Below, piece after piece: positions 47,749 to 64,000 of a stretch of 64,000 bases of DNA (within the stretch, counting starts at the first letter, position 1; each line of letters starts with the position of its first letter). The DNA comes from an uncultured Flavobacteriaceae bacterium (GTDB lineage: Bacteria > Bacteroidota > Bacteroidia > Flavobacteriales > Flavobacteriaceae): NCBI GenBank assembly GCA_963727565.1, contig CAVSGU010000007.1, forward strand, positions 119,979-183,978, in the 5' to 3' direction. Below the pieces are notes generated by a model. It saw only the letters and a program-made list of their open reading frames with translations. It was not told the DNA's origin and did not search any database. Both the position numbers and the translations under genes were made by a program.

Positions 47749-48300
47749 TTAAACTTTATGTTTAATATAGCCATCGCTCCCCTTATCACTTACCACTTTC
47801 CCTGGGTTTCCCAAAACTACACTATTATCGGGAACATCAAAATTAACATAGGATAAAGGTGCAATCAAAACATTATTTCCAATTTTAATTTTTCCCACAA
47901 CTACAGCATTTGCCCCTATCCATACTTCATTTCCAATTATTGGTGAGCCTTTCCTTTTCCCCCTACTCACATTTCCTATTGTAACTGCTTGAGAAATATT
48001 ACAGTTTTTACCAATTGTTGCTCCTTGATTTACATGCATAAGCCCCCAATGATTAAGAAAAAAACCCTCTCCTAATTGAGCCCCCAACTGAATCTGCATT
48101 CCAAATTTTGCTCTAAGCAAACGATACCATATTCTCGAGATGATACCCTAACGGATGCTTAGTGGAATAAGCATTAGCCAATCTATGATTAACCAAAATT
48201 CTAAATTCTGGATGATTAAAAAATACCGATAAAAATCCTGATTTCGAAAAACTGATCTCTACCATAGCGAAGAAGATCACTTTTGATTAAATTGAAACAT
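47749..48300 (-). pseudogene. Serine-O-acetyltransferase-like (CysE/WcaB-type) LbH protein; several indels in the 5' part
   Basis: ATG 48300, then IKSDLLRY and HRLAN in shifted frames; intact part has IGKNCNISQAVTIG, PIIGNEVWIGANA and GNPGK. Confidence 0.75.
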
Positions 48301-48340
48301 TTTGTTTTAAGCATTTTTATCTTTTATTTTGCTATAATTT

Positions 48341-48882: not shown

Positions 48883-51112
48883 TTACTCTAAATCATCAAG
48901 AGTATCTGTGATATTTATAAAATCATAAGGATTTTCATAGGTAGAATAAAAAGTTGAATCCTTCTAGAATTTTAAAATCCTCATTAAAAACAGTATTAAA
49001 TACAGCACGAAAAGTATTCACAGAAGAAATATCCGGATACAAATTTTTATTATTACTGCTTGAATTATTTATATAAATAGCATTAAAAATTTCACTCCTT
49101 TCTTTAAGAAATTCCGGACTGGGGTTTTCCATATCATCCTCCAAAAAAGCAGGACCATGATCAGACTGAATAATTATCACACTATTTTCCGATTTATTTA
49201 AAAGCTTCTCTGTTAAGGTTTTTACTTTTTTATTTAAAAATTTCAACTGTCCTAAATAATATTTTTTTTCATCTTTATTCCAGCTATTATCCAGGTTAAC
49301 AGACTTTGGTATTTCTCGGCCGTTTTCATCGAAAACATAAGGTGGATGGGGAGAAACTATATGAGCAAAAACAAATTTGGGATCTTTTATACTATCTAAT
49401 TTTGTTAAATGTTCAAAAGCATATAATATAGTTTTTCGATATTCTTTACCTGCAAAATAACCTACTAATGGTGAAAGTAAAGTAGTGTGCAGAAAATTGG
49501 TGGTGAACTCCCCCATATAGCTTGAATGCTTAAAATTGTAATCGGCATGAATATTTTTTTTGGTACCACCAAAGACACTTCCAAAATGAGCAGTTTTATA
49601 GCCTTTAGCCTTCAAATACTTTATTGCCTTACCATCTAATGCCATTTTATATGGGATACTTCTATTGGCAGATCCCTTTCCTAAAGTATCACCCAAATGG
49701 TTAATATAATCCATATTGAAAGTTGCTCCCAAGGAGAGAAAGGTATTCATATAATTAGACCTACTATTGGGAGCTATATAAAAACCTTTTTCGGTTAAAT
49801 AATTTTCAAAACTACTATTGTCAAAATCAAATTCATCTTTTAATATATCGGAACTGGCATAGCCATCAAGGATTATATAATAAATATCGGGCAAATCTTC
49901 CATACTTGTATTACTCACTTTTGCTGCCTGAAGCTCTTGATTTTCAGCGGTCTTTCTATTATCTATACTAAAAATCAATATTCTAAGTAAGACAATAGAT
50001 AATAAAGTAAAAGACAGGATATTGATTCCGCGTGATACGGGTTTTAAATTCCTTTTGGTTTTTAGGGTAAAATAAATAACCAACGCAGGAACAACGATAA
50101 AAAGTATGCCTAAAATAACAATCACCATCCTATGTGCAAAACCTAAAGCGGTAAACAAATCCCTTAAGTGACCAAACAAAAAGAACAAGGCTAAAGCGGT
50201 AAATACAAATATTTGTGTTTTAAATTTGTCTTTAACCAATAGTTTAATGGCAATAGTAAATGAAAGAGTTAGTACTAAAATTATTATAAGAAGCGAATAT
50301 ATTGACGATTCTGAATTATAAAGTTCTTCAATATTTTCAAAATAAACTGAAAGAAGTGGGAACACCGAAAACATTAAAAGAAAAATAATAAAGCCATTTT
50401 CTTTTAAAATTGGTTTGAGGGTATTTAAAGAACCTGTAAAGTAATTTGACAGTCGCCTATCAATTTCAGTAGATTCTATCTTTAATAGCAACCAGTTTTT
50501 ACCAATAGCGAACACATTGTTCATAGTCCAGAACAATACCAAGGCTGCAGAAAGATTATACAATAATACCAGGAATATAAGGGCTATTATTACTAATTGC
50601 ACTTTTTCACTTTTGTCTTTTCCTTTAGTGTAGAAATAAGAAGCTATTAAATTGACAAAAGTCATTAAAAAGGGCAATACATTTATCGCCAATCCTCCCA
50701 GCAAAATTAAACCATCGGGTTCAGATAGGTCACGAATAGGCCCAAAGGAAACCCCTTCTACCGGGGCATAATCTAAAAGTAAATAATAAGCTGCGAGAAA
50801 AAATGGAATTTGAATCAATAAGCCTATCAATCCGGTTAAAGAGTAAAACGGACTATAATTATGCTTGCGGTAAATTTCTCTTGTATAAAAATATTTTTCC
50901 TGTTTATTTTGAACATTCTTAATAGCATCAAGAGCAGGTTGCATCCTGTCTTTTCTGGCTTTTTCCAGGGCTTGTATCTTATCTGCTATCCAGAATAAAG
51001 GCAGCATTAGTATTTGCGTAGTTAAGCTTAAAAGGATTATAGACCAGCCATAACTATTCGTAATCCCATAGAAAAACTCCAATATGCTTTCAAGAAAGTT
51101 TACTAAGAACAT
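48883..51112 (-). CDS. Fusion: YidC/Oxa1-like membrane domain + TM linker + alkaline-phosphatase/sulfatase-fold (LtaS/EptA-like) domain; +1 indel near 48960
   Basis: YidC-like motifs YGWSIILLS..LPL, MQP, IQIPFF, DLSEPD, VLP, LVLFWTMNN. Sulfatase-fold motifs DIYYIILDGY, NYMNTFLS, HIVSPHPPY, QSDHG. Corrected frame ends DSTFYSTYENPYDF...LE. Confidence 0.8.
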
Positions 51113-51114
51113 TG

Positions 51115-52308
51115 TTATATTTCTTTAAATATTGATAGAATCTGTTGCGCTGCCACTTTTCCCGCGTGCTGAAAATTAAAAATATGTTTATCTATAATTT
51201 CCGGGGTTATTTTTTCATTGGATACCTTTTCGACAATAATATGAATATTGGCAATTTCTTTTTCTGAAATGGTACGGCCAAAATCTTCCAGTAAATATTT
51301 TGTGGAAGGAGGATTCTCAATATCAGATGACTCATAACCACCATCATCCCATTCAAAATCTACCGCTATAATTGGTATTTTTTGTAAAAATGCTACATCA
51401 TAGATCATTCCCGAGGTTGTATCGGTGATTAGGGCTTTGGCTTTAGAAAGGGCATGAACATTATCTACCCGTTTATCTATTTCAAAAAGATCATTCTTCT
51501 CAAATTTTGAGGTAATGGAAGCCAAGAGTTCTTTTTCTGATATCCAGGACTGCGGATGGGGCCTGTATAAAACATGATGTCCGTTTTCTATTAAATTCCC
51601 AATTAGAACTTCAGCATTACGCGGAAAAAAAGATCTATCGCCCCAGGTAGGTGCAACTAAAACATGTTCTTTAAGTTCCCCGTTTTGCGATTCTTTAGTA
51701 TCAAAATACGTGCAACCTGTTTTCATCAATTCTTTACGCTTACTTTTCCTATCGCGTTCCAATTGTCTAAGGTTAGTAATATGATATTCATTACCGCAAA
51801 GTACAGAATCATAATAATCGAATGAAAATTTCTTATTTGCGTGAACATCCATAGGAGCGTGTGCCAGATAGCAATAGTGTTCTACATTTTTTGAACGCTT
51901 CCAACTTAAAATATCCAATTGGGGAGTGGTGGTCACACACATCTTAGCCTTTAATTTGTTCAACACAAAAAAAGATTGGGTGGTATTACCAAGGTAGTGG
52001 GCCGAACAATATTCAGATTCAAGTTCTAAGCCGGGATCTTCCTTATCTGCCGTTAAATAGACAAATTTTTGCTTTCTTTTTATCAATTCTTGTAGCACAG
52101 GTTTAAAAACATTCCAGTAATTTTTTCCTTCACTAAAAAAAACCAGTTCCCCTGAAAAATCATTTGTGCCCTTATATTCTTTCCCTGCAAAAAAATGCAT
52201 CACTTTGTAGTAGGAATTTCGTATAGTAAAAGTAAGCGTCATTATAAAGCCTATTAAAATACTAATTAACAAACTTCCGGTACCGGGGTCGATATAAAGA
52301 AAAAACAT
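51115..52308 (-). CDS. CDP-glycerol:glycerophosphotransferase (TagF/TagB)-like phosphotransferase
   Basis: LVAPTWG (cf. LYAPTWR), YRPHP, LITDTTSGMIYD (cf. LITDYSS); N-terminal membrane anchor after YIDPGTGS. Confidence 0.75.
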   Translation of the reverse strand: MFFLYIDPGTGSLLISILIGFIMTLTFTIRNSYYKVMHFFAGKEYKGTNDFSGELVFFSEGKNYWNVFKPVLQELIKRKQKFVYLTADKEDPGLELESEYCSAHYLGNTTQSFFVLNKLKAKMCVTTTPQLDILSWKRSKNVEHYCYLAHAPMDVHANKKFSFDYYDSVLCGNEYHITNLRQLERDRKSKRKELMKTGCTYFDTKESQNGELKEHVLVAPTWGDRSFFPRNAEVLIGNLIENGHHVLYRPHPQSWISEKELLASITSKFEKNDLFEIDKRVDNVHALSKAKALITDTTSGMIYDVAFLQKIPIIAVDFEWDDGGYESSDIENPPSTKYLLEDFGRTISEKEIANIHIIVEKVSNEKITPEIIDKHIFNFQHAGKVAAQQILSIFKEI

Positions 52309-52310
52309 AG

Positions 52311-53021
52311 TTATTTTTTTAGGGATAAAATTCCAATGTTTTTAAGAATTGGATGGATAATATAATATTCTAAACTACTGTCATTAACAGGAAAGGGTTT
52401 TATTTCTTTTTTATTGCTTATAGCATTTAAAGCATTTACCAAACAATTAGCTCTAATTATATTATCGTAATATTGATCAATATTTACCCCTTTGGTGGGA
52501 GCATTATAGTGGGTTTTGGTTATTATATTTCCGGCGTCAATTTTTTCATTCATAAAAAATGCGGTTACCGTACAGGAATTTCTATTCAATATACTGTAAT
52601 ACAGCGTTGTGCTTCCACGTTCCGCAGGAATATCGCCTGGATGCATATGTATATAAGGTATCTCTAAATCAAAATGGTCTTTTTTAAGAATCTGGCCTCC
52701 ATAACCGCAAAAGATGACTAAATCTGGCGCAATTTCTTTAACTTGATCTACTACCTTTTTAGAATTTACATCAAATTCTTCAAGGTGCTTATAATTCCAT
52801 TTGTTACTTTTAAAAACAGTCTCAATTTCCTTTTCTAAATTGGGAAGAAATAAATTATTATCGGCAAAAAACTGTTCCGTTTCGTGGTTCAATTCAGGTG
52901 CCTTATATTCTTTTTCATCAAATCCATAAAATAAACCTTCTACTTCATAAGAATTTGAAGCTAAAGCTTGCGCGTAAGCATTAGACCTTAGGGTGTTTCC
53001 TGCGAGAAGCAAAATCTTCAT
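52311..53021 (-). CDS. Formyltransferase-family protein (N10-formyl-THF-dependent fold)
   Basis: DLVIFCGYGGQIL, HMHPGDIPAERG and MNEKIDAG motifs; no C-terminal FMT_C domain. Confidence 0.75.
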   Translation of the reverse strand: MKILLLAGNTLRSNAYAQALASNSYEVEGLFYGFDEKEYKAPELNHETEQFFADNNLFLPNLEKEIETVFKSNKWNYKHLEEFDVNSKKVVDQVKEIAPDLVIFCGYGGQILKKDHFDLEIPYIHMHPGDIPAERGSTTLYYSILNRNSCTVTAFFMNEKIDAGNIITKTHYNAPTKGVNIDQYYDNIIRANCLVNALNAISNKKEIKPFPVNDSSLEYYIIHPILKNIGILSLKK

Positions 53022-53592
53022 AAATCAACGTTTTTATTTTCACACAACTCGGTAATAATTCTATTTTCTTCCTTTATCAAATTAATTGCGGCCCCATAAT
53101 GAAAAAGTTCTTTTTCATCCTTTAACTCAAATATTCTACTGCAAACAATATCAACCACTTTTAAGAGCGAATTTAAGTACTGTAGATGTTTATATTTATT
53201 GTAAAGTTTTACCAGTACGAATCCAAAGTTGATATAAAGATTTAAATTATCGCGTTTTATATCTCTATTTACCCGGCGATAATCTTTATCGTACACTTCA
53301 TAAATCCTTTTAGTGACTTCAAACCTCTTTATTAATAAATGCACCTTATCTACTTCAGAAAAAACGGAATCAGTAGCTAACCATTTTTTAAATTCAAGAT
53401 TTGTTGTGGAATTATCTGTTATCTCATAACATAAATTATCATTTGCTAAAAGAATAGCTATACAAGCTTGCCTTTTTTCTTTCCAGGAATTGAGAAATTC
53501 CAGTCCACCAAACTTTGAATAGGAATAGTTTATTTTATTGTTAAAAACGTCCTTATTAAAATAAGTATAGTTATTTTATTTTCTCCAATCAT
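53018..53592 (-). CDS. Hypothetical protein (about 190 aa) of the phosphoramidate cassette; probable 1-bp deletion near 53575
   Basis: Frame is open from 53575 to 53018 (77 codons upstream of the track's GTG). ATG 53592 overlaps the upstream gene end and joins the frame if one A is added. Contains YSYSKFGGLEFLNSW, IKRFEVTKRIY and YLNSLLKVVD. Confidence 0.65.
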
Positions 53593-54325
53593 GAGACCAA
53601 TTCTTATCTTCTTTCAACTTTGTTTCATAAACTTTTACATCCTCGTTGGAATCGACTTCGCACCATTTGCCCTCAATAAATGCAATTTTAACATCAGTCT
53701 TTTCCATAAGCAGGGATAAAAATGAAGTCATATCCATTTTATCCTGTTCATCTTTTTCTAAAGCGTTAAAGATTTGAAAAGCCAACTCCCAGCCTTTTGG
53801 AGAAAACTTCAGCAAACCCATAAATTGAGCTTCAATATGCTCCATTTTATTTTCGTCTTTTCCTATCTCGGTCAAAACATTTCCGTTCGCTTTAAAACTT
53901 TCAGCATCATCCAGTGGATCTTCAAAGCGCGCAGACCAGAGCTTGAACCATTCTTTGTCTGCGGTAATAACGATATCACCTTCCTGATCCTTCAATTTTT
54001 GAATATGTTCATCAGAATATACTATATCTGAGTAAGAAACAATGGTATCAATTTCAATTTTAGGGGCACAAAAAAATGTTGCAACCATATTTGTTTCAGA
54101 CCATCTCGGATTTTCTGCTGTTTTAAAATCCCCCTGTAATAGTTCTGACCTATAACCTCTAACTACCGTTATATCTTCTATACCGGCTCCCCTCAAAGCA
54201 GAAAGTTGCCAATCTAATAATCTCTTACCCTTTAGCATGGTTAAACATTTATGAGATCTCTCGGTTGTACTACCCATTCGAGATCCACGTCCGGCTGCCA
54301 GTATTAATCCTTTATAATTACTCAT
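53576..54325 (-). CDS. NTP transferase; CTP:phosphoglutamine cytidylyltransferase-like (Cj1416/LicC/PntC family)
   Basis: ILAAGRGSRM, TNMVATFFCA, SYSDIVY, LWSARFEDPLDDAE, IEAQFMGLLKFS, MTSFL, WCEVD, matching Cj1416 as I recall it. Confidence 0.8.
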   Translation of the reverse strand: MSNYKGLILAAGRGSRMGSTTERSHKCLTMLKGKRLLDWQLSALRGAGIEDITVVRGYRSELLQGDFKTAENPRWSETNMVATFFCAPKIEIDTIVSYSDIVYSDEHIQKLKDQEGDIVITADKEWFKLWSARFEDPLDDAESFKANGNVLTEIGKDENKMEHIEAQFMGLLKFSPKGWELAFQIFNALEKDEQDKMDMTSFLSLLMEKTDVKIAFIEGKWCEVDSNEDVKVYETKLKEDKNWSHDWRK

Positions 54326-54938
54326 ATCTAAATAAATTTTTTATTATTTTTCCCTCCCATTCACTAAATTCTTCTTCCCTTTCGGGGTGCCACATCAATC
54401 CAAGTATTTTATTTCCCTGGTATGCTTCAATGCTATTGTCACGTTTGCACCTACCTATAATTTTCAGTGCATCTGGTTTAGTCTCATCAATTAACGTGTT
54501 GGAATGGTAAGAGTTAACTTCTTTAATTTCCTCATTTATAATTATTTGATGCCGGGTTGCTACGTGGAATGAGGAAAAACTATCTTCCCCTCTTTCAACT
54601 TCGCCTCCCAACCATTTATAGATGGCTTGAAACCCCCTACAAACACCTAATACCGGTAAAGAATGAGCTTGAGAATATTGAAAAATCAACTTTTCAGTAT
54701 TATCCCTTTCTTCAGAAACACTAAGATTTTCTCCGCCAGTAAGTATAAATGCGTTTAAATTCCAATTTCTAATATAATTATCAATGTCACTCTCAATATT
54801 TGGTAAGAGTATCCAATTAGCATTTGGCATAATTTCTTTCATATACCTATACCAATCCCGTGCTATAGAGTCCCGCTTTTCGTCATAATCAACCGCATTC
54901 GTTTCTCTCATACTTATTCCAATATTGAGTTTTTCCAT
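54318..54938 (-). CDS. Class I glutamine amidotransferase / peptidase C26; gamma-glutamyl-CDP-amidate hydrolase-like (Cj1417)
   Basis: EKRDSIARDW, ILTGG, LGVCRG (Cys nucleophile), NSYH, MWHPER (His-Glu). Confidence 0.8.
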   Translation of the reverse strand: MEKLNIGISMRETNAVDYDEKRDSIARDWYRYMKEIMPNANWILLPNIESDIDNYIRNWNLNAFILTGGENLSVSEERDNTEKLIFQYSQAHSLPVLGVCRGFQAIYKWLGGEVERGEDSFSSFHVATRHQIIINEEIKEVNSYHSNTLIDETKPDALKIIGRCKRDNSIEAYQGNKILGLMWHPEREEEFSEWEGKIIKNLFRYE

Positions 54939-54946
54939 AAGCTATA

Positions 54947-57311
54947 TTATATCGTAAATGGCTCTAAACGTTTTCCCTGGCAGTTCAATAATACTTTGCC
55001 TGCCTTTATTACCTTATTAAAAGGTTGCTCCCCGCAGCCTATTGCTGCAGGTAAATCATATTCGGCACAACGTATCGCCATATGGGAATTTGCTCCCCCG
55101 AACTTCGTTATAAGACCAGCTATTTTTCTGGAAAAAATCCAATCATAGCCTGGATCTGCTCCTTCTATACATATAATCTTACCTTCCAAATCAGGGATTT
55201 CTTTGATGAAAGGGTTCAGAAATACTATTTTCCCTTCAACTCTTTTGTTTCCAATAAAATTAGGTGCACTCCTTTGCATCGGTGCAATATATACATCTCT
55301 TCGAGAACGTATTAAGTAGTTTAGTTTAAATGAATTTGCCACATTATAAGATTTCTTTGCTTTTTTTATTCTGCGTTTAAAAAAAACTTTCAAATCCTTG
55401 GTAATTGGTTCAAATAGCACACTTCGAACATCATCTAAAGTAAGCATCGCTAAATCTTTTTTAGAAAAACCAATTAAATCACCCCATTCGGTAATATATT
55501 CTATAATCGCAGACAGATGTTTAGTGAATATAAATTTTTGATATTCCCTACCCTTTATAGCCTTTGATGCATATTCAAAAATATCATCTGCATTGATCCT
55601 GTCAAACCCGTGATCTTTCAATAGAATATTTAAATTTTCACGTTCTTTTTCACTTAATTGAAATACTTCATGCTCACCCGGTTTTTGAGGATCACCATCT
55701 AATAAATCAGGTCTATTTTTGTAACACGGCGATAAAATATCATAACTGTTTGGTCTAAGATGACCATATTTCTGCATGAATTTTTCTTTATCTAATTTAT
55801 CATTACATACCTCATAAAAGTCATTACTCAATTCTGTAGAAATAGTTTTTACACTTCTTTTAAAAGACTTCACCCTATCTTCCTCGATAGCTCCACACGC
55901 AATTGCTGATCTTAATAATGATTCTGCTATAAAACCATGCCTGGCGGTTATCGAAAAAGGTATTGTTCCATACTTTACGCATTGGTTTTTAAGCGTATTG
56001 ATATGATCTGAAATTGAAAAAGGAGTAACTAATTCTTTATTTAAATTTTCCTCCTGCAATTCTTTTAATAATTCTATTTGTGCAATAGCCTTATTTAATG
56101 TATTATCTTCTGTATTCTCTATAGCATTTTGAGTCAATTCTACTAAACAGCTCTTAAATTCAATTATTTCCTCCTTAGAAAGCAAATCGGGATATCTTTC
56201 CTTGAGATTTTCTTCAAATTTAAAATCATAAGCAGTAGGAACTACTTCAAATTCTATTTTATCGTGTAAATGAGGGTTGGTTTCCAGCCTTTCGATATAA
56301 GCATTAATAAGCTTCTCAGAAATTTCCGGACTTAGCTTTTCAGGTAGAAAAGAGTTCATACTATTACGTACATCTATATAGGCCCTACCAAATAAAGAAA
56401 CCATTAGTTCTACATCTGGCATTCTTTTATAACCCATTTCTTCCCTTGCCAAACTCCAGGCTCTTTTTGTAATTAGCTCCCGATATAAAGACATTGCAAG
56501 AGGGTGAGGTACCACACCAATCATTTCTGCAGGATTCCAATCGGGCATTATACCAAGCAGGGTTTTGTTACCATAAATATCAACCCTCCTGGTCATCAAT
56601 TGCTGCACAAAATCCTCAAGATAAGGAAGCCTTTCAGAAACTAATTTATTTGCTTTATTCTTCCAATTTTCAGAAGTAGTAATCGGCCTTACCTGCAGTA
56701 TAAAAACTTCATTCTTCTTATTTAATGCAAATTCAATGTCTAAAGGTAAATCCTTATAAAAAGCCTCCAATTCCCCTACCACTTTTAGAACCTTTAATAG
56801 ATAAGGAGAATCAAAATCTTCATCTTTAAAACCGTTATAGATATAAACCGTTTTATTAATGGAATTCCCACTTGTTACCGTATCTGTTTTACCTGTTGTA
56901 TCGTCAAAATTAATGACGTAGTATGGTGAGCCATCATCAAGAGACTTAGTCATTATAACCCCGCTCATTCTTACATCCTCCACCATAGGCTGTATCAAGA
57001 CTTGATTCTCAGGATTGTTATCAAAAGAATTAATTACAGTATCGATAGCTCTAGCCAGGTCATCTCTATTTTTAACATTAACATTTAAAACACTTTCAAA
57101 AGCTCCTGCCATAGAATCCACCTCTGTATCTTCTGCCATAGAACTGCTTCGAACGGCTAAATATGTGAAACTTTCATATTTTCTGGAAATGTTAGTAATA
57201 ACTTTATCTTTTAAATCATTCCATTCTTGTACCGTAAAAAAATGAACATCGGGTACGGGAAATCCATTTTCAGATATATATCTGTAGCGTTTCAGCTTTT
57301 GTTCCTAGCAT
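54947..57311 (-). CDS. PEP-utilising/PPDK-like enzyme; L-glutamine kinase-like (Cj1418); +1 indel near 57265
   Basis: Reconstructed N-terminus MLGTKAETL...AVRSSSMAEDTEVDSMAGAF (ATP-grasp), ILQVRPI, DWNPAEMIG, YGHLRP, and a C-terminal phospho-His domain GGANSHMAIRCAE; about 787 aa. Confidence 0.82.
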
Positions 57312-57334: not shown

Positions 57335-57342
57335 CAAAAATA
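57335..57342 (-). promoter_or_regulatory. -7 box TATTTTTG directly upstream of the phosphoramidate cassette
   Basis: Exact TAnnTTTG 23 nt before ATG 57311. Confidence 0.45.
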
Positions 57343-57499
57343 TTGGTATTTATTAAAAATAAGGTAAAGTAAATTGCGAAAACTTAGTTAAAAATAAATC
57401 GAGAAGCTTTGACGGTCAATTCTCAAATAATTCCGAATGAAAACATACAATACACTTATTAAAAATTAATAATATTTATTCTGGTTGAATCCAATTGCT

Positions 57500-58441
57500 T
57501 CAAAAAAGTAAAGTAACTTGATAATTATAATATAATTCTTTTCGAATAAAATTAGCCTCAGGGATAGCTATGCATAAATATCGGTTTTTGCTCTTAAATA
57601 ACATAAATTACCCAATACCGAACTGTAAAAAGAGACAACGGTTTTTGGAAAAACGTTACTATTAAGATACTCTTCCTCAAAGATGCTATTAAAATTCTTT
57701 ATTTCAAAGAATTCAGCAATTTTCTCAATAATATCTTTGGTTTCTCTTGGATGAGGAACATATAAAAATTTTTTATTTGGAAATTTTTCTTCAATCTATG
57801 TAAACATTTTAAATAAAATTCACTCGAGACAATATCCAGTTGTACTAAAGGTTGCCCTACAAAAATAACTTTAGAATCATCCAATTTAGGATGCTCTTAT
57901 TGTTTTCTTTTTTAAAGTTTTGAAAGTATCGTTAGATCAACATGAAGGGAGAAGGGACCAACAAAATTTAAAGATTCTATTTTGGGTTGTTTAAATTTTA
58001 ACTTTATAAAAAAACACGGTAAGTTCCTAACTTCTACATTATTATTCTTTCTATTATGGGCTACTGAAATTAACTGCATCCCATCATATAAAAGAAAAAT
58101 TTTACTGTTTTTTTCATATTCTCCAACTATACTTAAATGATAAAAATTACTATAGCTCCCCATATAAACATTCTGAAAAGTTTTAAATTTTCTTTTAAAT
58201 TGAAATAACCAGACTCTAAAGAAAAGAATTTTAGAAAATTCAAGTATGTCATTATTTCTAGCCACATAAACTATTGAAGTATATTCAAATTCAAATCCTC
58301 GAAGATATTAAGTATTTTTGAAGCAATTGTTTTATTAGGCACGGTTAAAACAACAACTGCATTTTCTAAAAGTTCGGGAGCTTTGGAAAAAAAAAAAGCC
58401 TGTGAAGGAGTGGATAATACAAATAGATTTTGTTTAGACAT
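57500..58441 (-). pseudogene. Putative nonulosonate (sialyl/pseudaminyl) transferase, several indels; 3' end approximate
   Basis: ATG 58441 gives MSKQNLFVLSTPSQ. Fragments carry LLYDG (D/E-D/E-G-like), FVGQP, YVPHPRE (HP) and SFYSSV (SS/T), the bacterial sialyltransferase motif order. Confidence 0.6.
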
Positions 58442-58517
58442 AGAGTTGTAAATTGATACTGCAATTTATTTCAGTATAAAATTGGGAAAAGTTAATTTTA
58501 CGCAAACTACTTAGGCA

Positions 58518-59778
58518 TTAGACTACATTCTTATCCGGTGTATGTAAGGCATGATAGATAATGTAAAACATACTTAAAGTGGATATTATTTCTGCCATTA
58601 AAGCTCCTAAAAAAATAAAATTGAGTTTTTGATTTGCAGGCGCCAGAAAATAAAACCTAAGCGGAGACAGAATATATAGAATATTTGTAATTATAGAGAT
58701 TTTAAGCTGTGCCGCGTAATCTTTTAGGGTATTTAAAACCTGAAAGATAAGGGCATACATTCTAAAAAATCCAATTACCACAGCAATCATAGTAATTGTT
58801 ATGGCTTCCTCGTATTTAGGAAAAAAATTCTGTATAGCATAGGGAATAAAGAATAAAGATAGTAATGCAAGACTCCCAAAACCGGTAAGATAAATCGATA
58901 ATTTTCTGTATTTTTTTCCATAATCTCTTTTTATCGCCGGTTTTTCCATAATCAAAAGTTAAACTCGGGAACATATACTTTGCTAGTGCTCCAGGTAAAA
59001 TACCAAAGGCCATCATAGCGGCATTAGCCGGTGCGGTTAAACCTAAAGCAGTAGTAGATAAGAAAAAAACAATTATTAGCCTCGGGTACGTATCCGGGAA
59101 TATTGTTTTAAAAAATTAAAACATAACATGGGAAAACCTATTTTAAGATTTTCAAAATAAGTAGCTTTAATAAAAGTTGATTTTACTTTAATTGGTCTAA
59201 ATACTACGAGCAAAACAGTAGAGAAAATACTATGAATCAGCAAGAGGAGCAAATATCCTAAAAATTCATAAAAGAAAATTAAGAGGAATTAAGGCAACTC
59301 CTACAATAGAGGATATAACATACACCTTTGATAAATCCTTAAAACTTTTTGAGGACCTATAGGTAGAAGATAAATAATTATCTACAAACATGGTAGAGAT
59401 AAAAACTCCTGCCGTAAGATATACCAAAATTTCCTCGGTGCCATCTGCAATAAATATCGCCATAAGTACAGCAATTAATAAAAATATTACTGTATACCAG
59501 ATGGTTACAAATTGTGCAGTAGATGCATATTCCTTAACCTTCGCCATTTTATCCTGCCCCATGTAAAATGGTAATTGTCTCCCTAAGCCCTGGGTAAGGC
59601 CTAATTGTAAAAAACCTATATATGGTTTAACAATTAAGGCGGCCTGCCAAAGCCCTAACTTTTCTGGTCCGATAACTTTTATAGCTATTAAACTCATGGC
59701 CATTGCTGCAAAAGTTTTAAATAAAGAACTGGCAGTAAAACCTACTACTACTTTAGAACCTTTTAATGATTTAATCAT
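58518..59778 (-). pseudogene. Wzx-like oligosaccharide flippase, split by indels (track ORFs 59266-59961, 58816-59016, 58518-58955)
   Basis: ATG 59778 preferred. GPEKLGLWQ, LQLGLTQGLGRQLP and many TM helices; total length about 420 codons. Confidence 0.7.
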
Positions 59779-60098
59779 GCAGCTATTAATAAGAAAAGTT
59801 TGGGATGAATTGCATAATAAATTGACAGATATTATAGAAAAAAACTTAATTAGACTTAATAAATAATTTAATCTTTTACAGAATTGCAGCTTAGAGTTAT
59901 ATCTTTTGTAAATCCCCTTAGTTTCCGTAAGATCTCTGTGAAGACTGGAGATTCGTATCAATAACCATCCATAGCTACCTACATTTTTGAATTATTACTT
60001 TCACTACTTTAATATTTGTTGAAACGGATAAAGTTTCTACCCTTCTCCTGCAGCTTTATTGGGAAAAATTACCGCATATTATTTTAGTTGATATAAAT

Positions 60099-60809
60099 TT
60101 ATTGGATTATTCTTACAATGCAAAAAGCTTCGGCAAATCGCTTTCCGGTAACCACTCCCCACCGTTGGGCCTGGATTTTCAATGCGTCCGGAGATCTTGG
60201 GTGTGGATATGCCCTTTTTTCATATTCGTAACTTTCCATTCCATCTATTTTAGCATTTAAGTTTTCCTCAGAAATTTCTATAAACATATTTGGTATAAAA
60301 TGTTTTGGATCTGTTGCCGCTCTCCATTCAGTACCTGAAGGTGTTTCAAAAGATATTAAAGTATTTACTTTTTCATCTTTAAGAGGTCGGGTAGCAGTAA
60401 GAACTGCTTCGAAAGTTTTTTGATGGTCAATATTTACATCACCAAGATGATGAGTGAATATAACTTCAGGAGCAAAATCTTCTTTTTCCTTTTCTACCAC
60501 TTTAATAATATCCAGCAAAGCCACTGTATCAAATCGATTATCTGGAAAATCATAAATACCTACGGACTCGTAGCCTATAATCTTTTGGGCACTTTCGATA
60601 TTATTTCTATGGACCTGAAGTTCTTTTTTCCAAACTTCGGGATTTCTTTCTTTAGCTCTAGAGGTAATACCTTCACCTAATATAACCGCCCTAACTTTAC
60701 ATCCATAATCTTTTATCAGTTTATGCATTGAAGCTCCAAGCCCCAAAAGTTCATCATCGGGATGTGCTACTACAACTAAAATTTTTTTATTTCTTAGTGA
60801 TTCTAACAT
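60099..60809 (-). CDS. PIG-L/LmbE-family de-N-acetylase
   Basis: VVAHPDDELLG, FPDNRFD, THHLGDVNIDHQ. Confidence 0.9.
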   Translation of the reverse strand: MLESLRNKKILVVVAHPDDELLGLGASMHKLIKDYGCKVRAVILGEGITSRAKERNPEVWKKELQVHRNNIESAQKIIGYESVGIYDFPDNRFDTVALLDIIKVVEKEKEDFAPEVIFTHHLGDVNIDHQKTFEAVLTATRPLKDEKVNTLISFETPSGTEWRAATDPKHFIPNMFIEISEENLNAKIDGMESYEYEKRAYPHPRSPDALKIQAQRWGVVTGKRFAEAFCIVRIIQ

Positions 60810-61461
60810 CTGCTAGTATTTCTTTTTCTGATTTTAAGGAAGCCCTCGTAAATTCAAATTTAAAATTTTCAGTTTCGATAAACGCCGAGGGATACCCCTC
60901 ACAATCGAGCATTCTTATATAATTAAAGATTAGTTCTAATTCCTTCAAATCTTCCAAATTACCATCTCGTGGCTTTCTCCGCTTGAATTCAACAACTTCA
61001 CCTTTCTGAGGAATTGGTAATAAATTCTTTTCTATGATCTCTACAATCATCTTTTCTATCACACTCTTACTCCTCAAAAAAATCTCTTTTGCTGTTCCAT
61101 GTAAACTAAGAGATTTTTTTAAATAAACTGGTCCAGTATCCAAACCATCTCCTACCTTAAGTGCTGAAATTTTAGTCTCATTTTGATTTCTAACGATTAA
61201 ATTTTGGAGCGGGCTCCCTCCTCTTCCGTAGGGCAAGTCCGTCATATGAAATACTATACAATTAAATTTGGTAAATATCTCTTCTGGAATTATATGAGAC
61301 CAATGAGGAATAAAAATTGAGTTCGGTTTTATCTTATTCAAATTTGAAACGGAAAATTCTTCCTTACTAGAAAGTCGTATCCAATTCTCCCCTGGTCTTT
61401 CTGATAGTTCATCAAAAAGCGCATCATGCCAAGATTTATTAGTTAATAGTATATAAGTCAT
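60787..61461 (-). CDS. Sugar N-formyltransferase (Fmt-like)
   Basis: FIPHWSHIIP, FHMTDLPYGRGGSPLQNLI, GLDTGPVY. Confidence 0.82.
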   Translation of the reverse strand: MTYILLTNKSWHDALFDELSERPGENWIRLSSKEEFSVSNLNKIKPNSIFIPHWSHIIPEEIFTKFNCIVFHMTDLPYGRGGSPLQNLIVRNQNETKISALKVGDGLDTGPVYLKKSLSLHGTAKEIFLRSKSVIEKMIVEIIEKNLLPIPQKGEVVEFKRRKPRDGNLEDLKELELIFNYIRMLDCEGYPSAFIETENFKFEFTRASLKSEKEILADVRITKK

Positions 61462-61471
61462 TGGTTTATAC

Positions 61472-62530
61472 TTATAATATATCCCAAGTTAAAGGGGTAC
61501 CTTTTTTGAAATTATCGGTAGCACGTCTCCCTAAAACGCGCTCATAGTATTTTGGTTCCATTCCATCACCAGGACGAATAATTCTTACATTTTCACTTGT
61601 AAAAGCTTCCCCTTCTTTAATATCCTCAACTATATAAAGGGATCTTTTGAATCTCAAGCTAGACTTTTCTTTCTCTTGTATATCATATTGAACTTTCCCC
61701 AATGCTTTCCAGGCTCTTTCGCTCTCAATAACTAAGGCCTTAAGCTCATGAGGCTCTATGGAAAAGGCCGAATCTACCCCCCCATCTGCCTTATTCACGA
61801 TGAAATGTTTTTCAATAATTCGTGCACCCAAGGCAACCGAAGCTACTGCAGCACCAATTCCTCCAGTATGATCTGAAAGTCCTGTAAAACAATCAAACAT
61901 TTCTCGCATATGCGGAATTGTTCGCAAATTTGTGCTTTCAGCTCCAGCAGGATATGTACTGGTACACTTCAAAAGCACTAAATTTTTACATCCATGATTT
62001 CTCAAAACACTTACCGATTCAGCTATATCACTCAATTTCGACGCTCCAGTTGACATAATAACAGGTTTACCTGTAGAAGCTACCTTTTTTAGTAGTGGCC
62101 AATCTTTATTTTCAAAAGACGCAATTTTATATACATCTACATTAAGCTCCTCCAAAAAATCCACAGATGTACTATCAAATGGAGTACTAAAAGGAATCAT
62201 TCCTTTTTCTCTGGCTCGTTCAAAAATGGGCTTATGCCATTCCCAAGGTGTATAAGCAATTTTGTACAATTCATGGAGCGTTTTACCGTGCCATAGTGAG
62301 TCAGGATCATCGATATAAAACAAACCTTTGTCGTGAGGAATAGTCATCGTATCTGCCGTATAGGTTTGAAGTTTCAAACCATGAGCACCAGCCTCTGCTG
62401 CTGCATCCACTATTTCCAAGGCTTTATCTAAACTCTGATTATGATTTCCGGACATTTCAGCAATCACAAATGGTTTTTGATCATCTCCTATTATATGTTT
62501 TCCAATTTTAAAGCTTTCAATCATTTTCAA
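61472..62530 (-). CDS. pseI: Pseudaminic acid synthase (NeuB family with SAF domain)
   Basis: IAEMSGNHNQSL, KLQTYTADTMTI, KIASFE, GLSDHT, IEKHF, RSLYIVEDIKEGE. Confidence 0.88.
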   Translation of the reverse strand: MKMIESFKIGKHIIGDDQKPFVIAEMSGNHNQSLDKALEIVDAAAEAGAHGLKLQTYTADTMTIPHDKGLFYIDDPDSLWHGKTLHELYKIAYTPWEWHKPIFERAREKGMIPFSTPFDSTSVDFLEELNVDVYKIASFENKDWPLLKKVASTGKPVIMSTGASKLSDIAESVSVLRNHGCKNLVLLKCTSTYPAGAESTNLRTIPHMREMFDCFTGLSDHTGGIGAAVASVALGARIIEKHFIVNKADGGVDSAFSIEPHELKALVIESERAWKALGKVQYDIQEKEKSSLRFKRSLYIVEDIKEGEAFTSENVRIIRPGDGMEPKYYERVLGRRATDNFKKGTPLTWDIL

Positions 62531-63149
62531 AAATTTTTATAGTATATTTTTTATTCCTAAAATTAAAATAAGCCGGATATCTTTCATTATCGCATACCCT
62601 CATTAATTCAAATTGATCTGCAATAGTTTTAAAAGGATCTAACTCACTATCTTTAGGAGTTCTTTTAGGATAAAAAGAGGATTCTCCTTCTTGATCCTTG
62701 CCCTTATTATTCGGAAATTTTTCAACAAAGTCTAATATAAGATCTAGAGTAGCTAAACCTTGTTTGTGTTTTATTTCCGGCAAAAGTTCTGTTCCAGTCA
62801 ATTCGATAATCTTTTGACCATAAATTGTTCCGGCATCGAGTTGCTCTACGGCCTCAAAAAGGGTAACTGGAATTCTGTTTTTCCCTTCTAATATTTGCCA
62901 TGTTAATGGAGACCAACCCTTACCCTCTGGTAAATCACTCTCGTGTACTACCAAATTATGCCTATTTAAATCTAACTTTTTAAAAATTCTTTCGCAGCCC
63001 AATAGACACAATACGTCACCACTTACAACCTGATTGTGATGAGTGATTAATCGGCTTTCGTGTTCTAATTCTTTAAGCTTTTCCACCAATTTCTCAGCAT
63101 ATGGTATTAACCAAGACCCTGGATTGTCAACTAAAACCTGAATTACCAT
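62517..63149 (-). CDS. Second formyltransferase-family protein of the Pse module
   Basis: VVHESDLPEGKGWSPLTWQI, QLDAG, RVCDNERYPA. Confidence 0.8.
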   Translation of the reverse strand: MVIQVLVDNPGSWLIPYAEKLVEKLKELEHESRLITHHNQVVSGDVLCLLGCERIFKKLDLNRHNLVVHESDLPEGKGWSPLTWQILEGKNRIPVTLFEAVEQLDAGTIYGQKIIELTGTELLPEIKHKQGLATLDLILDFVEKFPNNKGKDQEGESSFYPKRTPKDSELDPFKTIADQFELMRVCDNERYPAYFNFRNKKYTIKIFEND

Positions 63150-63158
63150 AAACTACTA

Positions 63159-63722
63159 TTAAATTTTAAATTGAGATATTTTAGAGTGAATAACAACATC
63201 AATAAACTTTCCATCAAATAAACAATGATCTTTTAAAGTAGCATCATGGAAAAAATCGTTCTTCTCTAAAGTTACATATAACTTAGGTCTTAAGTCAAAT
63301 GCATATACGTACAATTTGTGAAATTTAAGGTCTCTAAAGGCTAGCTCTTCCAACATTTCCAAGTATTTACTCCAATACAAATCAAAAAAATCCTTTTCTA
63401 ATTCTGTATTTATAACAAATGAAACTTCAGCATTTTTATCAATCCAATTAATATGTACGAGACCTCCATATGCTACGCAAGTTTTTCCTTCCATGAAGGA
63501 AAAGAGTATTTGATCAGGCTGATCCTTCTCAAATAAATCAGCTATAACTTCGAAAAAATATTTATCTTGCTTTTCTTTAGTAAGAGGTTCGTTTTGCCGT
63601 AAATGATAAATTTGTTCATTACGCCAATTCATAATTTCGTAACGATCTTCTAACCGAAGAGGTACCAGAGAATATTCTCCTACTGTAAATTCTTGGTTTT
63701 TAAGAGTTTTGTAATTATTCAT
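63159..63722 (-). CDS. GNAT N-acetyltransferase, PseH-like
   Basis: RimL-type GNAT (EIMNWRNE, AYGGLVHINW, FHKLY); located in the pse cluster. Confidence 0.65.
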   Translation of the reverse strand: MNNYKTLKNQEFTVGEYSLVPLRLEDRYEIMNWRNEQIYHLRQNEPLTKEKQDKYFFEVIADLFEKDQPDQILFSFMEGKTCVAYGGLVHINWIDKNAEVSFVINTELEKDFFDLYWSKYLEMLEELAFRDLKFHKLYVYAFDLRPKLYVTLEKNDFFHDATLKDHCLFDGKFIDVVIHSKISQFKI

Positions 63723-64000
63723 TTATTATTATTTAAAAAAGAGGATAGCCTACTAAAGTCATATTTTTCAAGCAAAGGACCTATTGCCTCTATTTCTTCA
63801 ATTAATGATTTATAAACGGTTTTTTGAAAATTTGATTTGTTAACCTCGAAAATCCAACTATAATTTTCTTTACAATATCTAACCAGATCCATACCTATCG
63901 GTATTTTGTATTTATCAGCAATCGAAAAGACGGCCGATAACACTAAATAATCGGAGGGGTAATCTATAGTCAAACGAAGCTTTTTAAAATTTTCATCTTC
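63719..64000 (-). CDS. C-terminal part of an SpsF/PseF-like cytidylyltransferase; 5'-truncated by window
   Basis: Frame is open from 64000: EDENFKKLRLTIDYPSDY (RLTxDxxxD motif of SpsF/KdsB-like CTP transferases). Confidence 0.65.
   Translation of the reverse strand, partial: EDENFKKLRLTIDYPSDYLVLSAVFSIADKYKIPIGMDLVRYCKENYSWIFEVNKSNFQKTVYKSLIEEIEAIGPLLEKYDFSRLSSFLNNNK

Follow-up and report, generated by a model that had tools for sequence, protein, structure and literature searches.

What does a run of seven genes make in a marine flavobacterium when it opens with relatives of the Campylobacter phosphoramidate enzymes and closes with a fusion of YidC-like and sulfatase-like domains, and is that run one system? 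The genes, here called g1 to g7 in order of transcription, lie head to tail on the minus strand at 48.9 to 57.3 kb of the window, that is, of the whole stretch of 64,000 nucleotides from an uncultured Flavobacteriaceae bacterium that we analyzed (GenBank assembly GCA_963727565.1, contig CAVSGU010000007.1, positions 119,979 to 183,978). A sequence-only reading had described them as a self-contained cassette for decorating a glycan through phosphorus-nitrogen (P-N) chemistry, and the seven minus-strand genes, their order, and their tight junctions are borne out by the list of open reading frames (ORFs) and by family matches. We favor, at a probability of about 0.55, an accessory surface-polysaccharide decoration cassette of three modules, which would make a P-N donor, tailor it, and transfer it by a TagF-type enzyme, and which would be off in this genome. 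The cassette is built from three separable, reusable modules; it is neither one invention nor unique.

The first module is the donor triad. In Campylobacter jejuni, O-methyl phosphoramidate (MeOPN) is made by the L-glutamine kinase Cj1418, the CTP:phosphoglutamine cytidylyltransferase Cj1416, and the gamma-glutamyl-CDP-amidate hydrolase Cj1417, followed by the CDP-amidate 3'-kinase Cj1415, the methyltransferases Cj1419/1420, and the transferases Cj1421/1422 (PMC3907429; PMC6429109). The characterized route leads from glutamine through N-phosphoglutamine and CDP-glutamine to CDP-amidate plus glutamate (PMC6429109 and Raushel papers cited there). The product of g1 (54947 to 57311; longest ORF 54947 to 57139, 730 amino acids [aa]) is L-glutamine-kinase-like, with a PPDK_N ATP-grasp domain and a PEP-utilizers phosphohistidine domain; it scores 882.5 bits on NF004508, for which the cut-off is 501, and also matches PF01326 and PF00391. 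We take NF004508 (the PRK05849 family) to be the family that contains Cj1418. A hydrolase of the C26/class-I glutamine-amidotransferase fold is encoded by g2 (54318 to 54938; 206 aa), which resembles the gamma-glutamyl-CDP-amidate hydrolase: its best NCBIfam match, over the full length, is the equivalog model for that enzyme, NF045546 (92.3 bits; cut-off, 250). The same model is matched by 63/63 C26 proteins aligned from kinase loci (best E value, 1.2e-54), and the alignment columns of Cys100, His184, and Glu186 are invariant. The third gene, g3 (53576 to 54325; 249 aa), encodes a MobA/LicC-type cytidylyltransferase similar to the CTP:phosphoglutamine enzyme, with 53 bits on PF12804 (NTP_transf_3). 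Thus, g1 to g3 appear to be family-level equivalents of Cj1418, Cj1417, and Cj1416 in the same order, in agreement with the earlier proposal of a P-N precursor made as in C. jejuni, and there is strong family-level support for predicting that they make CDP-amidate.

The triad is not confined to this genome. A scan for the kinase with one genome per species returned 496 relatives, and the best 80 kinase loci span Bacteroidota, Proteobacteria, bacteria of the candidate phyla radiation (CPR), and DPANN and methanogenic archaea; no Campylobacter locus is among them. The hydrolase is present in 68/80 and the cytidylyltransferase in 65/80 of these loci, 33 carry an APS-kinase-like (Cj1415-like) gene, and 22 carry S-adenosylmethionine (SAM) methyltransferases, the last two being the remaining enzyme types of the Campylobacter pathway. 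Others have already noticed the triad outside Campylobacter, for example in Borg elements (bioRxiv 10.1101/2024.11.05.622173); we found no solved structures of Cj1416, Cj1417, or Cj1418. In one deltaproteobacterium (L013, CP026658.1), the triad, a methyltransferase, and an APS-kinase-like gene sit together on a 65-kb plasmid, a location that fits lateral mobility of the P-N pathway. In the window genome, a tblastn search with 17 APS-kinase-like proteins of related loci gave no match in the whole genome at E ≤ 1e-3, and Pfam and NCBIfam identify no methyltransferase domain in the seven genes. The prediction that the set downstream of the donor differs from that of Campylobacter therefore stands.

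The second module is the g4/g5 pair. The 236-aa product of g5 (52311 to 53021) has a formyltransferase fold reduced to the N-domain: it reaches 29.3 bits on PF00551 (Formyl_trans_N; cut-off, 26.1) and has no Formyl_trans_C domain, and its best solved relatives are nucleotide-sugar N-formyltransferases and Fmt. Residues H125, H127, D162, R190, and H223 are invariant in 24 homologues. The position of the catalytic Asn is an invariant His in 24/24 (H-x-H for N-x-H); the His, the Asp, and the folate-binding HPGxLPxxRG loop are kept. Its neighbor g4 (53018 to 53592; open frame as it stands, 53018 to 53575) encodes a protein of about 191 aa that has no Pfam or NCBIfam match and is all-helical in its AlphaFold model (pLDDT, 85); a fold search against the PDB gave no match with an E value below 0.6.

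A profile of the 24 g5 homologues retrieved 227 relatives. In 78 of the best 80 g5 loci, g4 immediately precedes g5. The same 80 loci include the kinase 75 times, the cytidylyltransferase 74 times, and the hydrolase 73 times; an APS-kinase-like gene occurs in 72, mostly in a compact APS-kinase-g4-g5 triplet, and only the Bacteroidota versions lack the Cj1415-like kinase beside g4/g5. These counts indicate that g4 and g5 are specific companions of the P-N pathway. We considered whether the pair replaces the Cj1415 kinase and rejected the idea because the two genes normally adjoin a Cj1415-like gene. We take g4 to be the obligate partner of g5, either a subunit or a specificity factor. Since CDP-amidate is a nucleotide-linked amine, N-formylation of the amidate nitrogen, or a related one-carbon or acyl transfer, is a reasonable activity for the pair; by analogy with known formyltransferases, we assign it to g5 tentatively, as a possibility well short of even odds.

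The third module would install the head group. The sixth gene, g6 (51115 to 52308), encodes 397 aa and is a predicted membrane-anchored CDP-X phosphotransferase of the TagF family. Its model (pLDDT, 90) has the TagF structures 3l7k and 3l7m as top Foldseek matches (E value, 1e-11), and the motifs APTWGDR and RPHPQS are conserved, so that fold and motifs both uphold the earlier description of this gene as TagF-like. Many g6 homologues carry precomputed PF04464 assignments, and NCBI names the orthologue in Christiangramia gaetbulicola DSM 23082 "CDP-glycerol glycerophosphotransferase family." The protein starts with a YIDPGTGS motif and one transmembrane (TM) helix; in 65/74 g6 proteins, a conserved N-terminal [YF]IDPGxG motif is likewise followed by one TM helix.

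The last gene, g7 (48883 to 51112; ORF as it stands, 48935 to 51112, 725 aa), joins a YidC-like domain to an LtaS-like unit (60KD_IMP plus Sulfatase), as the sequence-only reading had proposed. The YidC-like part scores 89 bits on PF02096 (cut-off, 35) and 97.7 on TIGR03592 (cut-off, 84.3) and also matches solved YidC structures, and the C-terminal part scores 45.4 bits on PF00884 (cut-off, 25). A YidC-like core of five TM segments is followed by five hydrophobic segments (residues 235 to 383) and then by a soluble domain with DGY416, NTF456, and DHG651. Hydropathy predicts that this alkaline-phosphatase-superfamily domain lies outside the inner membrane. NCBI names g7-type proteins "YidC/Oxa1 family membrane protein insertase," but where the first core helix of YidC places a groove-lining Arg, g7 has Gln; the separate housekeeping YidC of this genome keeps the Arg. 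In about 96 partner proteins, the same column holds Asn (67), Ser (12), Thr (11), or Gln (2) and never Arg or Lys. The pairing of the N-terminal motif and TM helix of g6 with such a groove suggests that g6 may dock in the YidC-like groove of g7. Literature searches for a YidC-sulfatase or YidC-TagF system returned nothing relevant.

A query with the single g6 protein found 2 loci, and an alignment profile found 518 relatives. The best 81 g6 loci come from Bacteroidota, Spirochaetota, Desulfovibrionaceae, rumen Clostridia, and Treponema. A YidC-like gene, often in several paralogues, is adjacent in 76/81, but the triad is present in only 3/81. The expectation that the cassette genes co-occur in other genomes thus held for g5 with the kinase and for g6 with YidC-like genes and only rarely for g6 with the triad. 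Other g6 loci carry PEP-mutase-cytidylyltransferase fusions, phosphonopyruvate decarboxylase, 2-aminoethylphosphonate (AEP) transaminase, and LicC/LicCA-like or TagD-like genes, and these varied neighbors suggest that the g6/g7 pair is a generic installer combined with different CDP- or CMP-activated head groups. The cassette is accordingly not the single self-contained unit first described: g4/g5 are widespread P-N companions, and g6/g7 mostly serve other activated head groups. In six loci (L097, L108, L109, L127, L143, and L166), two to three tandem paralogues of the YidC-like fusion, about 3 kb each, flank a single TagF-like gene, and one TagF-like transferase may serve several LtaS-like partners there.

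Donor and installer are nevertheless closely tied in the window. The g5/g6 and g6/g7 junctions are 2 nt each, and the order is kept in three Flavobacteriaceae loci: L001 (C. gaetbulicola DSM 23082), L002, and L247, a 34-kb metagenome contig. At least three separate lineages combine the triad with a g6 gene, with or without g7, namely, these Flavobacteriaceae, a Syntrophomonadaceae metagenome-assembled genome (MAG; L010), and an Acetatifactor MAG (L071); the triad is also joined to g6-type genes in a Flavobacteriaceae MAG (L011). In addition, 28/80 six-gene P-N loci have a member of a second, soluble PF04464 subfamily at a distance of 2.2 kb from g5. A TagF-like enzyme acting on a tailored CDP donor is known from Clostridioides difficile, where FtaD transfers N-methyl-phosphothreonine from a CDP donor tailored on the CDP (bioRxiv 10.64898/2026.02.12.704994).

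Two relatives carry all seven genes intact. C. gaetbulicola DSM 23082 is the closest genome: its genes are syntenic and encode 787, 206, 249, 191, 236, 398, and 747 aa, and its kinase is 92% identical to g1. The second is contig L247, the g6 protein of which is 96% identical to ours. In the window, three of the seven genes are frameshifted, including that for the first committed enzyme, and the earlier picture of an intact cassette does not apply to this genome. One extra base is found in g1 near position 57282 (CTACAGATATAT here, CTACA-ATATAT in L001 and L247); the frame from the ATG at 57311 stops after 13 codons (frameshift at codon 11), and the next usable start, the ATG at 57139, leaves 730 aa compared with 787 aa in the relatives. 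One base is missing from g4 near 53569: read from the ATG at 53592, the frame closes after 20 codons, and the 185-codon frame that is left contains no ATG, GTG, or TTG before the GTG at 53344, whereas the 191-aa orthologues in L001 and L247 are intact. Finally, an extra base near 48965 replaces the last ∼28 residues of g7 and ends the ORF at 48935 (725 aa), not at 48883 (745 to 747 aa). The outer positions 57311 and 48883, previously taken as the ends of intact genes, are reached only by reading across frameshifts and are the ends of repaired genes.

Two other accounts of these lesions were rejected. Phase variation does not fit, as the sites are not homopolymers and slippage in the (AT)4 run beside the g1 lesion would change the length by 2 nt and not by 1. 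Fusion of g4 to g3, or read-through from g3 in the frame that the two share across a TAA, is also discarded, because g4 in the relatives starts at its own ATG, which overlaps g3, and the shared frame results from the 1-nt deletion.

The neighbors of the cassette are damaged as well. At 57400 to 58430 (minus strand) lies a decayed copy of a 327-aa gene with ∼12 one- and two-base indels relative to L247 and a longest surviving ORF of 117 aa; L001 and L247 have this gene intact, with a weak polysialyltransferase-like match (PF07388), and its product probably transfers the nonulosonic acid that the upstream genes make. A flippase-like gene at 58500 to 59960 (minus strand; 411 aa in relatives) is split by frameshifts, and a hexapeptide acyltransferase gene at 47750 to 48320 (minus strand; 187 to 188 aa in relatives) is split by several indels. 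Genome-wide, ORFs of ≥150 aa cover a median of 87% of 6-kb bins, so the assembly is not generally error-ridden. For all seven genes, dN/dS between the window and L247 is 0.05 to 0.2, no different from that between the two intact relatives; selection thus acted on the genes until recently, and any inactivation must be recent. On the other hand, these three frameshifts could be assembly errors, with the cassette intact and functional here as in C. gaetbulicola. All three lesions are single-base changes, no stop codon interrupts the long ORFs behind them, the dN/dS values show no relaxed constraint, and the region is AT-rich, at 29 to 34% GC. Yet ORF coverage is normal across the genome, no homopolymer run lies at any of the three sites, and the flanking genes carry many indels, ∼12 of them in a single 1-kb gene, which assembly noise does not explain; indels in genes of both flanks point to real decay of the locus. 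Assembly error is thus the less probable account, though one to be taken seriously. In this strain, decay seems to extend to the entire polysaccharide locus, and inactivation of the cassette is likely to be real and recent.

Several further observations weigh against a P-N decoration cassette of three cooperating modules. The equivalence of g1 to g3 to the C. jejuni proteins rests on NCBIfam models, and g2 falls below the NF045546 cut-off (92 versus 250 bits). Because g5 is without the catalytic Asn, its activity may not be that of a formyltransferase; for g6 itself, Pfam gives no match at E ≤ 0.01; and, as most g6/g7 pairs work without the triad, their adjacency here could reflect the fusion of two independent decoration systems. 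From these points, different readings follow. The triad might make a donor other than CDP-amidate, such as CDP-glutamine itself or another N-phospho amide, as the low equivalog score of g2 would allow and as the breadth of LicC/MobA-type cytidylyltransferases might suggest, for these take many substrates, including phosphoglycerate (PMC12275187) and AEP (PMC6697681). We consider this very improbable: the combination and order of the three genes are those of the characterized pathway, the hydrolase keeps its Cys-His-Glu triad, and one third of the related loci keep a Cj1415-like kinase, an enzyme that acts on CDP-amidate.

The same question can be asked of the other two modules. Sugar N-formyltransferases are the closest solved relatives of g5, and a DegT aminotransferase, FdtA, and nonulosonic-acid genes are common neighbors, so that the target of g4/g5 might be an amino sugar or nonulosonic acid in the same glycan, which they would N-formylate or N-acylate, and not the phosphoramidate. 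DegT and FdtA, however, accompany g5 in only 43/80 and 24/80 loci, compared with the 75, 72, and 78 loci that hold the kinase, the APS-kinase-like gene, and g4, respectively, and g5 is often interleaved in the triad operon (L003 and L036 to L038); a sugar target is therefore quite unlikely. It is also unlikely, if slightly less so, that g6/g7 install a different CDP- or CMP-activated head group, for example, glycerol phosphate made elsewhere, with the adjacency to the triad an accident of locus shuffling. That 78/81 g6 loci lack the triad speaks for this explanation, as do the three Bacteroidota loci described below in which g6 and g7 stand apart from any donor pathway. The 2-nt junctions, the order conserved in L001, L002, and L247, and the independent joining of the triad to g6-type genes in Firmicutes (L010 and L071) and in L011 speak against it, as does the second TagF-like subfamily accompanying 28/80 P-N loci; moreover, the cassette holds no further cytidylyltransferase for a phospho head group.

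From gene content, homology, folds, co-occurrence, and the frameshifts, we infer the following sequence of events for the favored three-module cassette, the substrates, the order of steps, and the acceptor all being proposals. The P-N donor would arise by the Campylobacter logic, with the LicC/MobA-type cytidylyltransferase making CDP-L-glutamine and the C26-fold hydrolase removing glutamate to give cytidine diphosphoramidate (CDP-amidate). Together with its partner g4, g5 would then modify the nucleotide-linked amidate nitrogen, e.g., by N-formylation, before transfer, a step that would parallel the tailoring of CDP-threonine before transfer in C. difficile. As this lineage has no Cj1415-type 3'-kinase, CDP-amidate or its tailored form would serve as the direct donor, as CDP-glycerol does for TagF. 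The TagF-like g6 would take the phospho head group from the CDP donor and release CMP, and g7 would either dock g6 or finish the transfer at the outer surface of the inner membrane. The acceptor would be a nonulosonic-acid-containing polysaccharide encoded by the surrounding locus. In this genome, the pathway would be off, through recent single-base frameshifts in g1 and g4 together with an altered C-terminal tail of g7. The most likely product of the intact pathway, as predicted from sequence, is a phosphoramidate decoration, possibly N-formylated, on that polysaccharide.

A bolder proposal, which we put forward as speculation and hold to be rather unlikely, is that g6 and the Arg-less YidC/LtaS fusion form an unrecognized two-sided envelope machine in hundreds of diderm and monoderm species. 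The cytoplasmic TagF part, docked through its YIDPGxG motif and TM helix in the groove, would load a membrane carrier with the head group of any CDP or CMP donor that the locus provides, the groove would pass the charged carrier across the membrane, and the LtaS-like domain would transfer the group to a glycan on the outside; in combination with g4/g5, this would yield a phosphoramidate here that is N-formylated or modified on the nitrogen in another way. Such a machine may handle phosphoramidate here and phosphonate, phosphocholine, or glycerol phosphate elsewhere.

Comparison with known systems places the cassette between several of them, and our literature searches, like the earlier reading, found no characterized system with this architecture. 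It appears to share with the C. jejuni MeOPN locus the three donor-forming enzyme types, their transcriptional order (kinase, hydrolase, cytidylyltransferase), and the setting in a surface-polysaccharide locus. The differences are that the genome lacks a Cj1415-like kinase altogether, that the cassette encodes no methyltransferase and contains the extra g4/g5 pair, that we assign transfer to a TagF-like enzyme and its YidC/LtaS-like partner, and that the host is a marine flavobacterium. The C. jejuni "CGPTase" was considered as a link between TagF-like enzymes and MeOPN transfer and set aside, since its gene is distinct from that of the MeOPN transferase (PMC8949473). Closer in content is an uncharacterized six-gene P-N cassette (APS-kinase-like gene, g4, g5, kinase, hydrolase, and cytidylyltransferase) found in Pseudomonas, Methylotenera, Zoogloea, Alteromonas, Paraglaciecola, Prochlorococcus, Verrucomicrobia, and Methanoregula. 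Its triad and g4/g5 are homologous to ours and adjacent in the same way, but it keeps the Cj1415-like kinase (72/80) and has either the soluble TagF-like subfamily (28/80) or no recognizable transferase. In Pseudomonas (L178 to L181, L189, L190, L198, and others), the six-gene cassette lies beside flgK/flgJ, giant glycosyltransferases, and GT61-like genes, that is, in a flagellin-glycosylation island.

The tailoring and transfer steps have their nearest parallel in the FtaABCD proteins of C. difficile Type A flagellin, in which a cytidylyltransferase makes an unusual CDP-X that is tailored on CDP and transferred by a TagF-like enzyme with release of CMP (bioRxiv 10.64898/2026.02.12.704994; PMC10714395). 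There, however, N-methyl-phosphothreonine is transferred, tailoring is the work of a SAM methyltransferase, and FtaD is soluble and has no YidC/LtaS-like partner. With the CDP-alditol phosphotransferases TagF, TarF, and TarL of wall teichoic acid synthesis (3l7k), g6 has in common a GT-B-like fold and the PTW...R and (R/K)xHP motifs; it differs in its diderm host, its single N-terminal TM helix and YIDPGxG motif, and the lack of any sign of polymerase function, and its donor is probably not CDP-glycerol. The g7 protein resembles LtaS, GacH, and EptA in that a predicted extracytoplasmic alkaline-phosphatase-superfamily domain, with motifs of the DxxT...DHG type, comes after a 5-TM unit, and it resembles YidC/Oxa1 in its 60KD_IMP domain, which scores above the cut-offs, but the groove Arg of YidC is absent. 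It differs from both LtaS-type transferases and YidC/Oxa1 in that the two units are fused in one polypeptide.

The cassette is rare among close relatives. The kinase is present in 1/22 genomes of the genus and in 1/301 genus representatives of the family, in both cases the window genome itself, and g6 is likewise present in 1/301 of these representatives. Apart from this genome, only C. gaetbulicola, a Polaribacter MAG, and one metagenome contig showed all seven genes in this arrangement. The G+C content of the locus is 29 to 34%, compared with ∼37% in the left part of the window, and synonymous divergence from L247 is mosaic, with dS values of ∼0.28 to 0.39 for g1, g6, and g7 and of ∼0.7 to 2.0 for g2 to g5, which suggests recombination breakpoints inside the cassette. 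Low G+C content and mosaic divergence together indicate lateral exchange, and the cassette was probably acquired horizontally.

A 2019 review stated that phosphoramidate-bearing glycan residues had been identified only in Campylobacter, where the modification affects serum resistance and phage recognition (PMC6429109). The donor triad is spread over roughly 500 species-level genomes of both prokaryotic domains, and about half of the triad genomes carry the pathway-specific, uncharacterized g4/g5 (227 relatives). Recurrent candidate installers are TagF-like enzymes, not the Campylobacter transferases. The highly conserved pairing of a TagF-like with a YidC/LtaS-like protein, which accompanies phosphonate, phosphocholine, and P-N pathways, could be the missing transfer step of several "phosphonyl/phospho tailoring" systems, and an N-formyl or N-modified phosphoramidate, if real, would be a glycan substituent never described before. 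Most interesting to us are this widespread, uncharacterized partnership and the P-N-specific g4/g5 pair. As the locus in the window is decaying, the intact cassette of the cultured C. gaetbulicola DSM 23082 is the better object of study.

The layout of the cassette is that of a gene chain preceded by a Bacteroidota-type promoter box. The box, TATTTTTG (57335 to 57342, minus strand), fits TAnnTTTG, was read directly from the sequence, and lies 24 nt upstream of the g1 ATG at 57311; its columns are invariant in the alignment with C. gaetbulicola. It had been noticed earlier together with a downstream gap of ∼580 bp, which we also find, as ∼570 bp without a long ORF beyond g7. Genes g1 and g2 are separated by 8 nt, g2 and g3 overlap by 8 nt, g3 and g4 overlap by 17 nt if the g4 ATG at 53592 is used, g4 and g5 overlap by 4 nt, and the last two junctions are the 2-nt gaps given above.

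Some g6/g7 pairs stand in a quite different setting. In three Bacteroidota loci (L090, 9346 to 13803; L091, 9347 to 13401; L092, 9357 to 13413), the two genes form a stand-alone unit with a SAM methyltransferase of ∼209 aa, in the order methyltransferase-g6-g7. No genes for head-group activation are nearby, and in L092 the unit lies between gyrB and lpxD.

The genes around the cassette in the window belong to a polysaccharide locus, with an MBOAT protein, hexapeptide acyltransferases, a GT4 glycosyltransferase, a polysaccharide deacetylase, a PIG-L protein, and the flippase remnant, and nonulosonic-acid genes lie upstream of the cassette in the intact relatives. The PIG-L deacetylase is found upstream, in the segment from 60099 to 64000; at the same position, the relatives carry NeuB, an NTP_transferase-CBS protein, and a CMP-nonulosonate synthetase.

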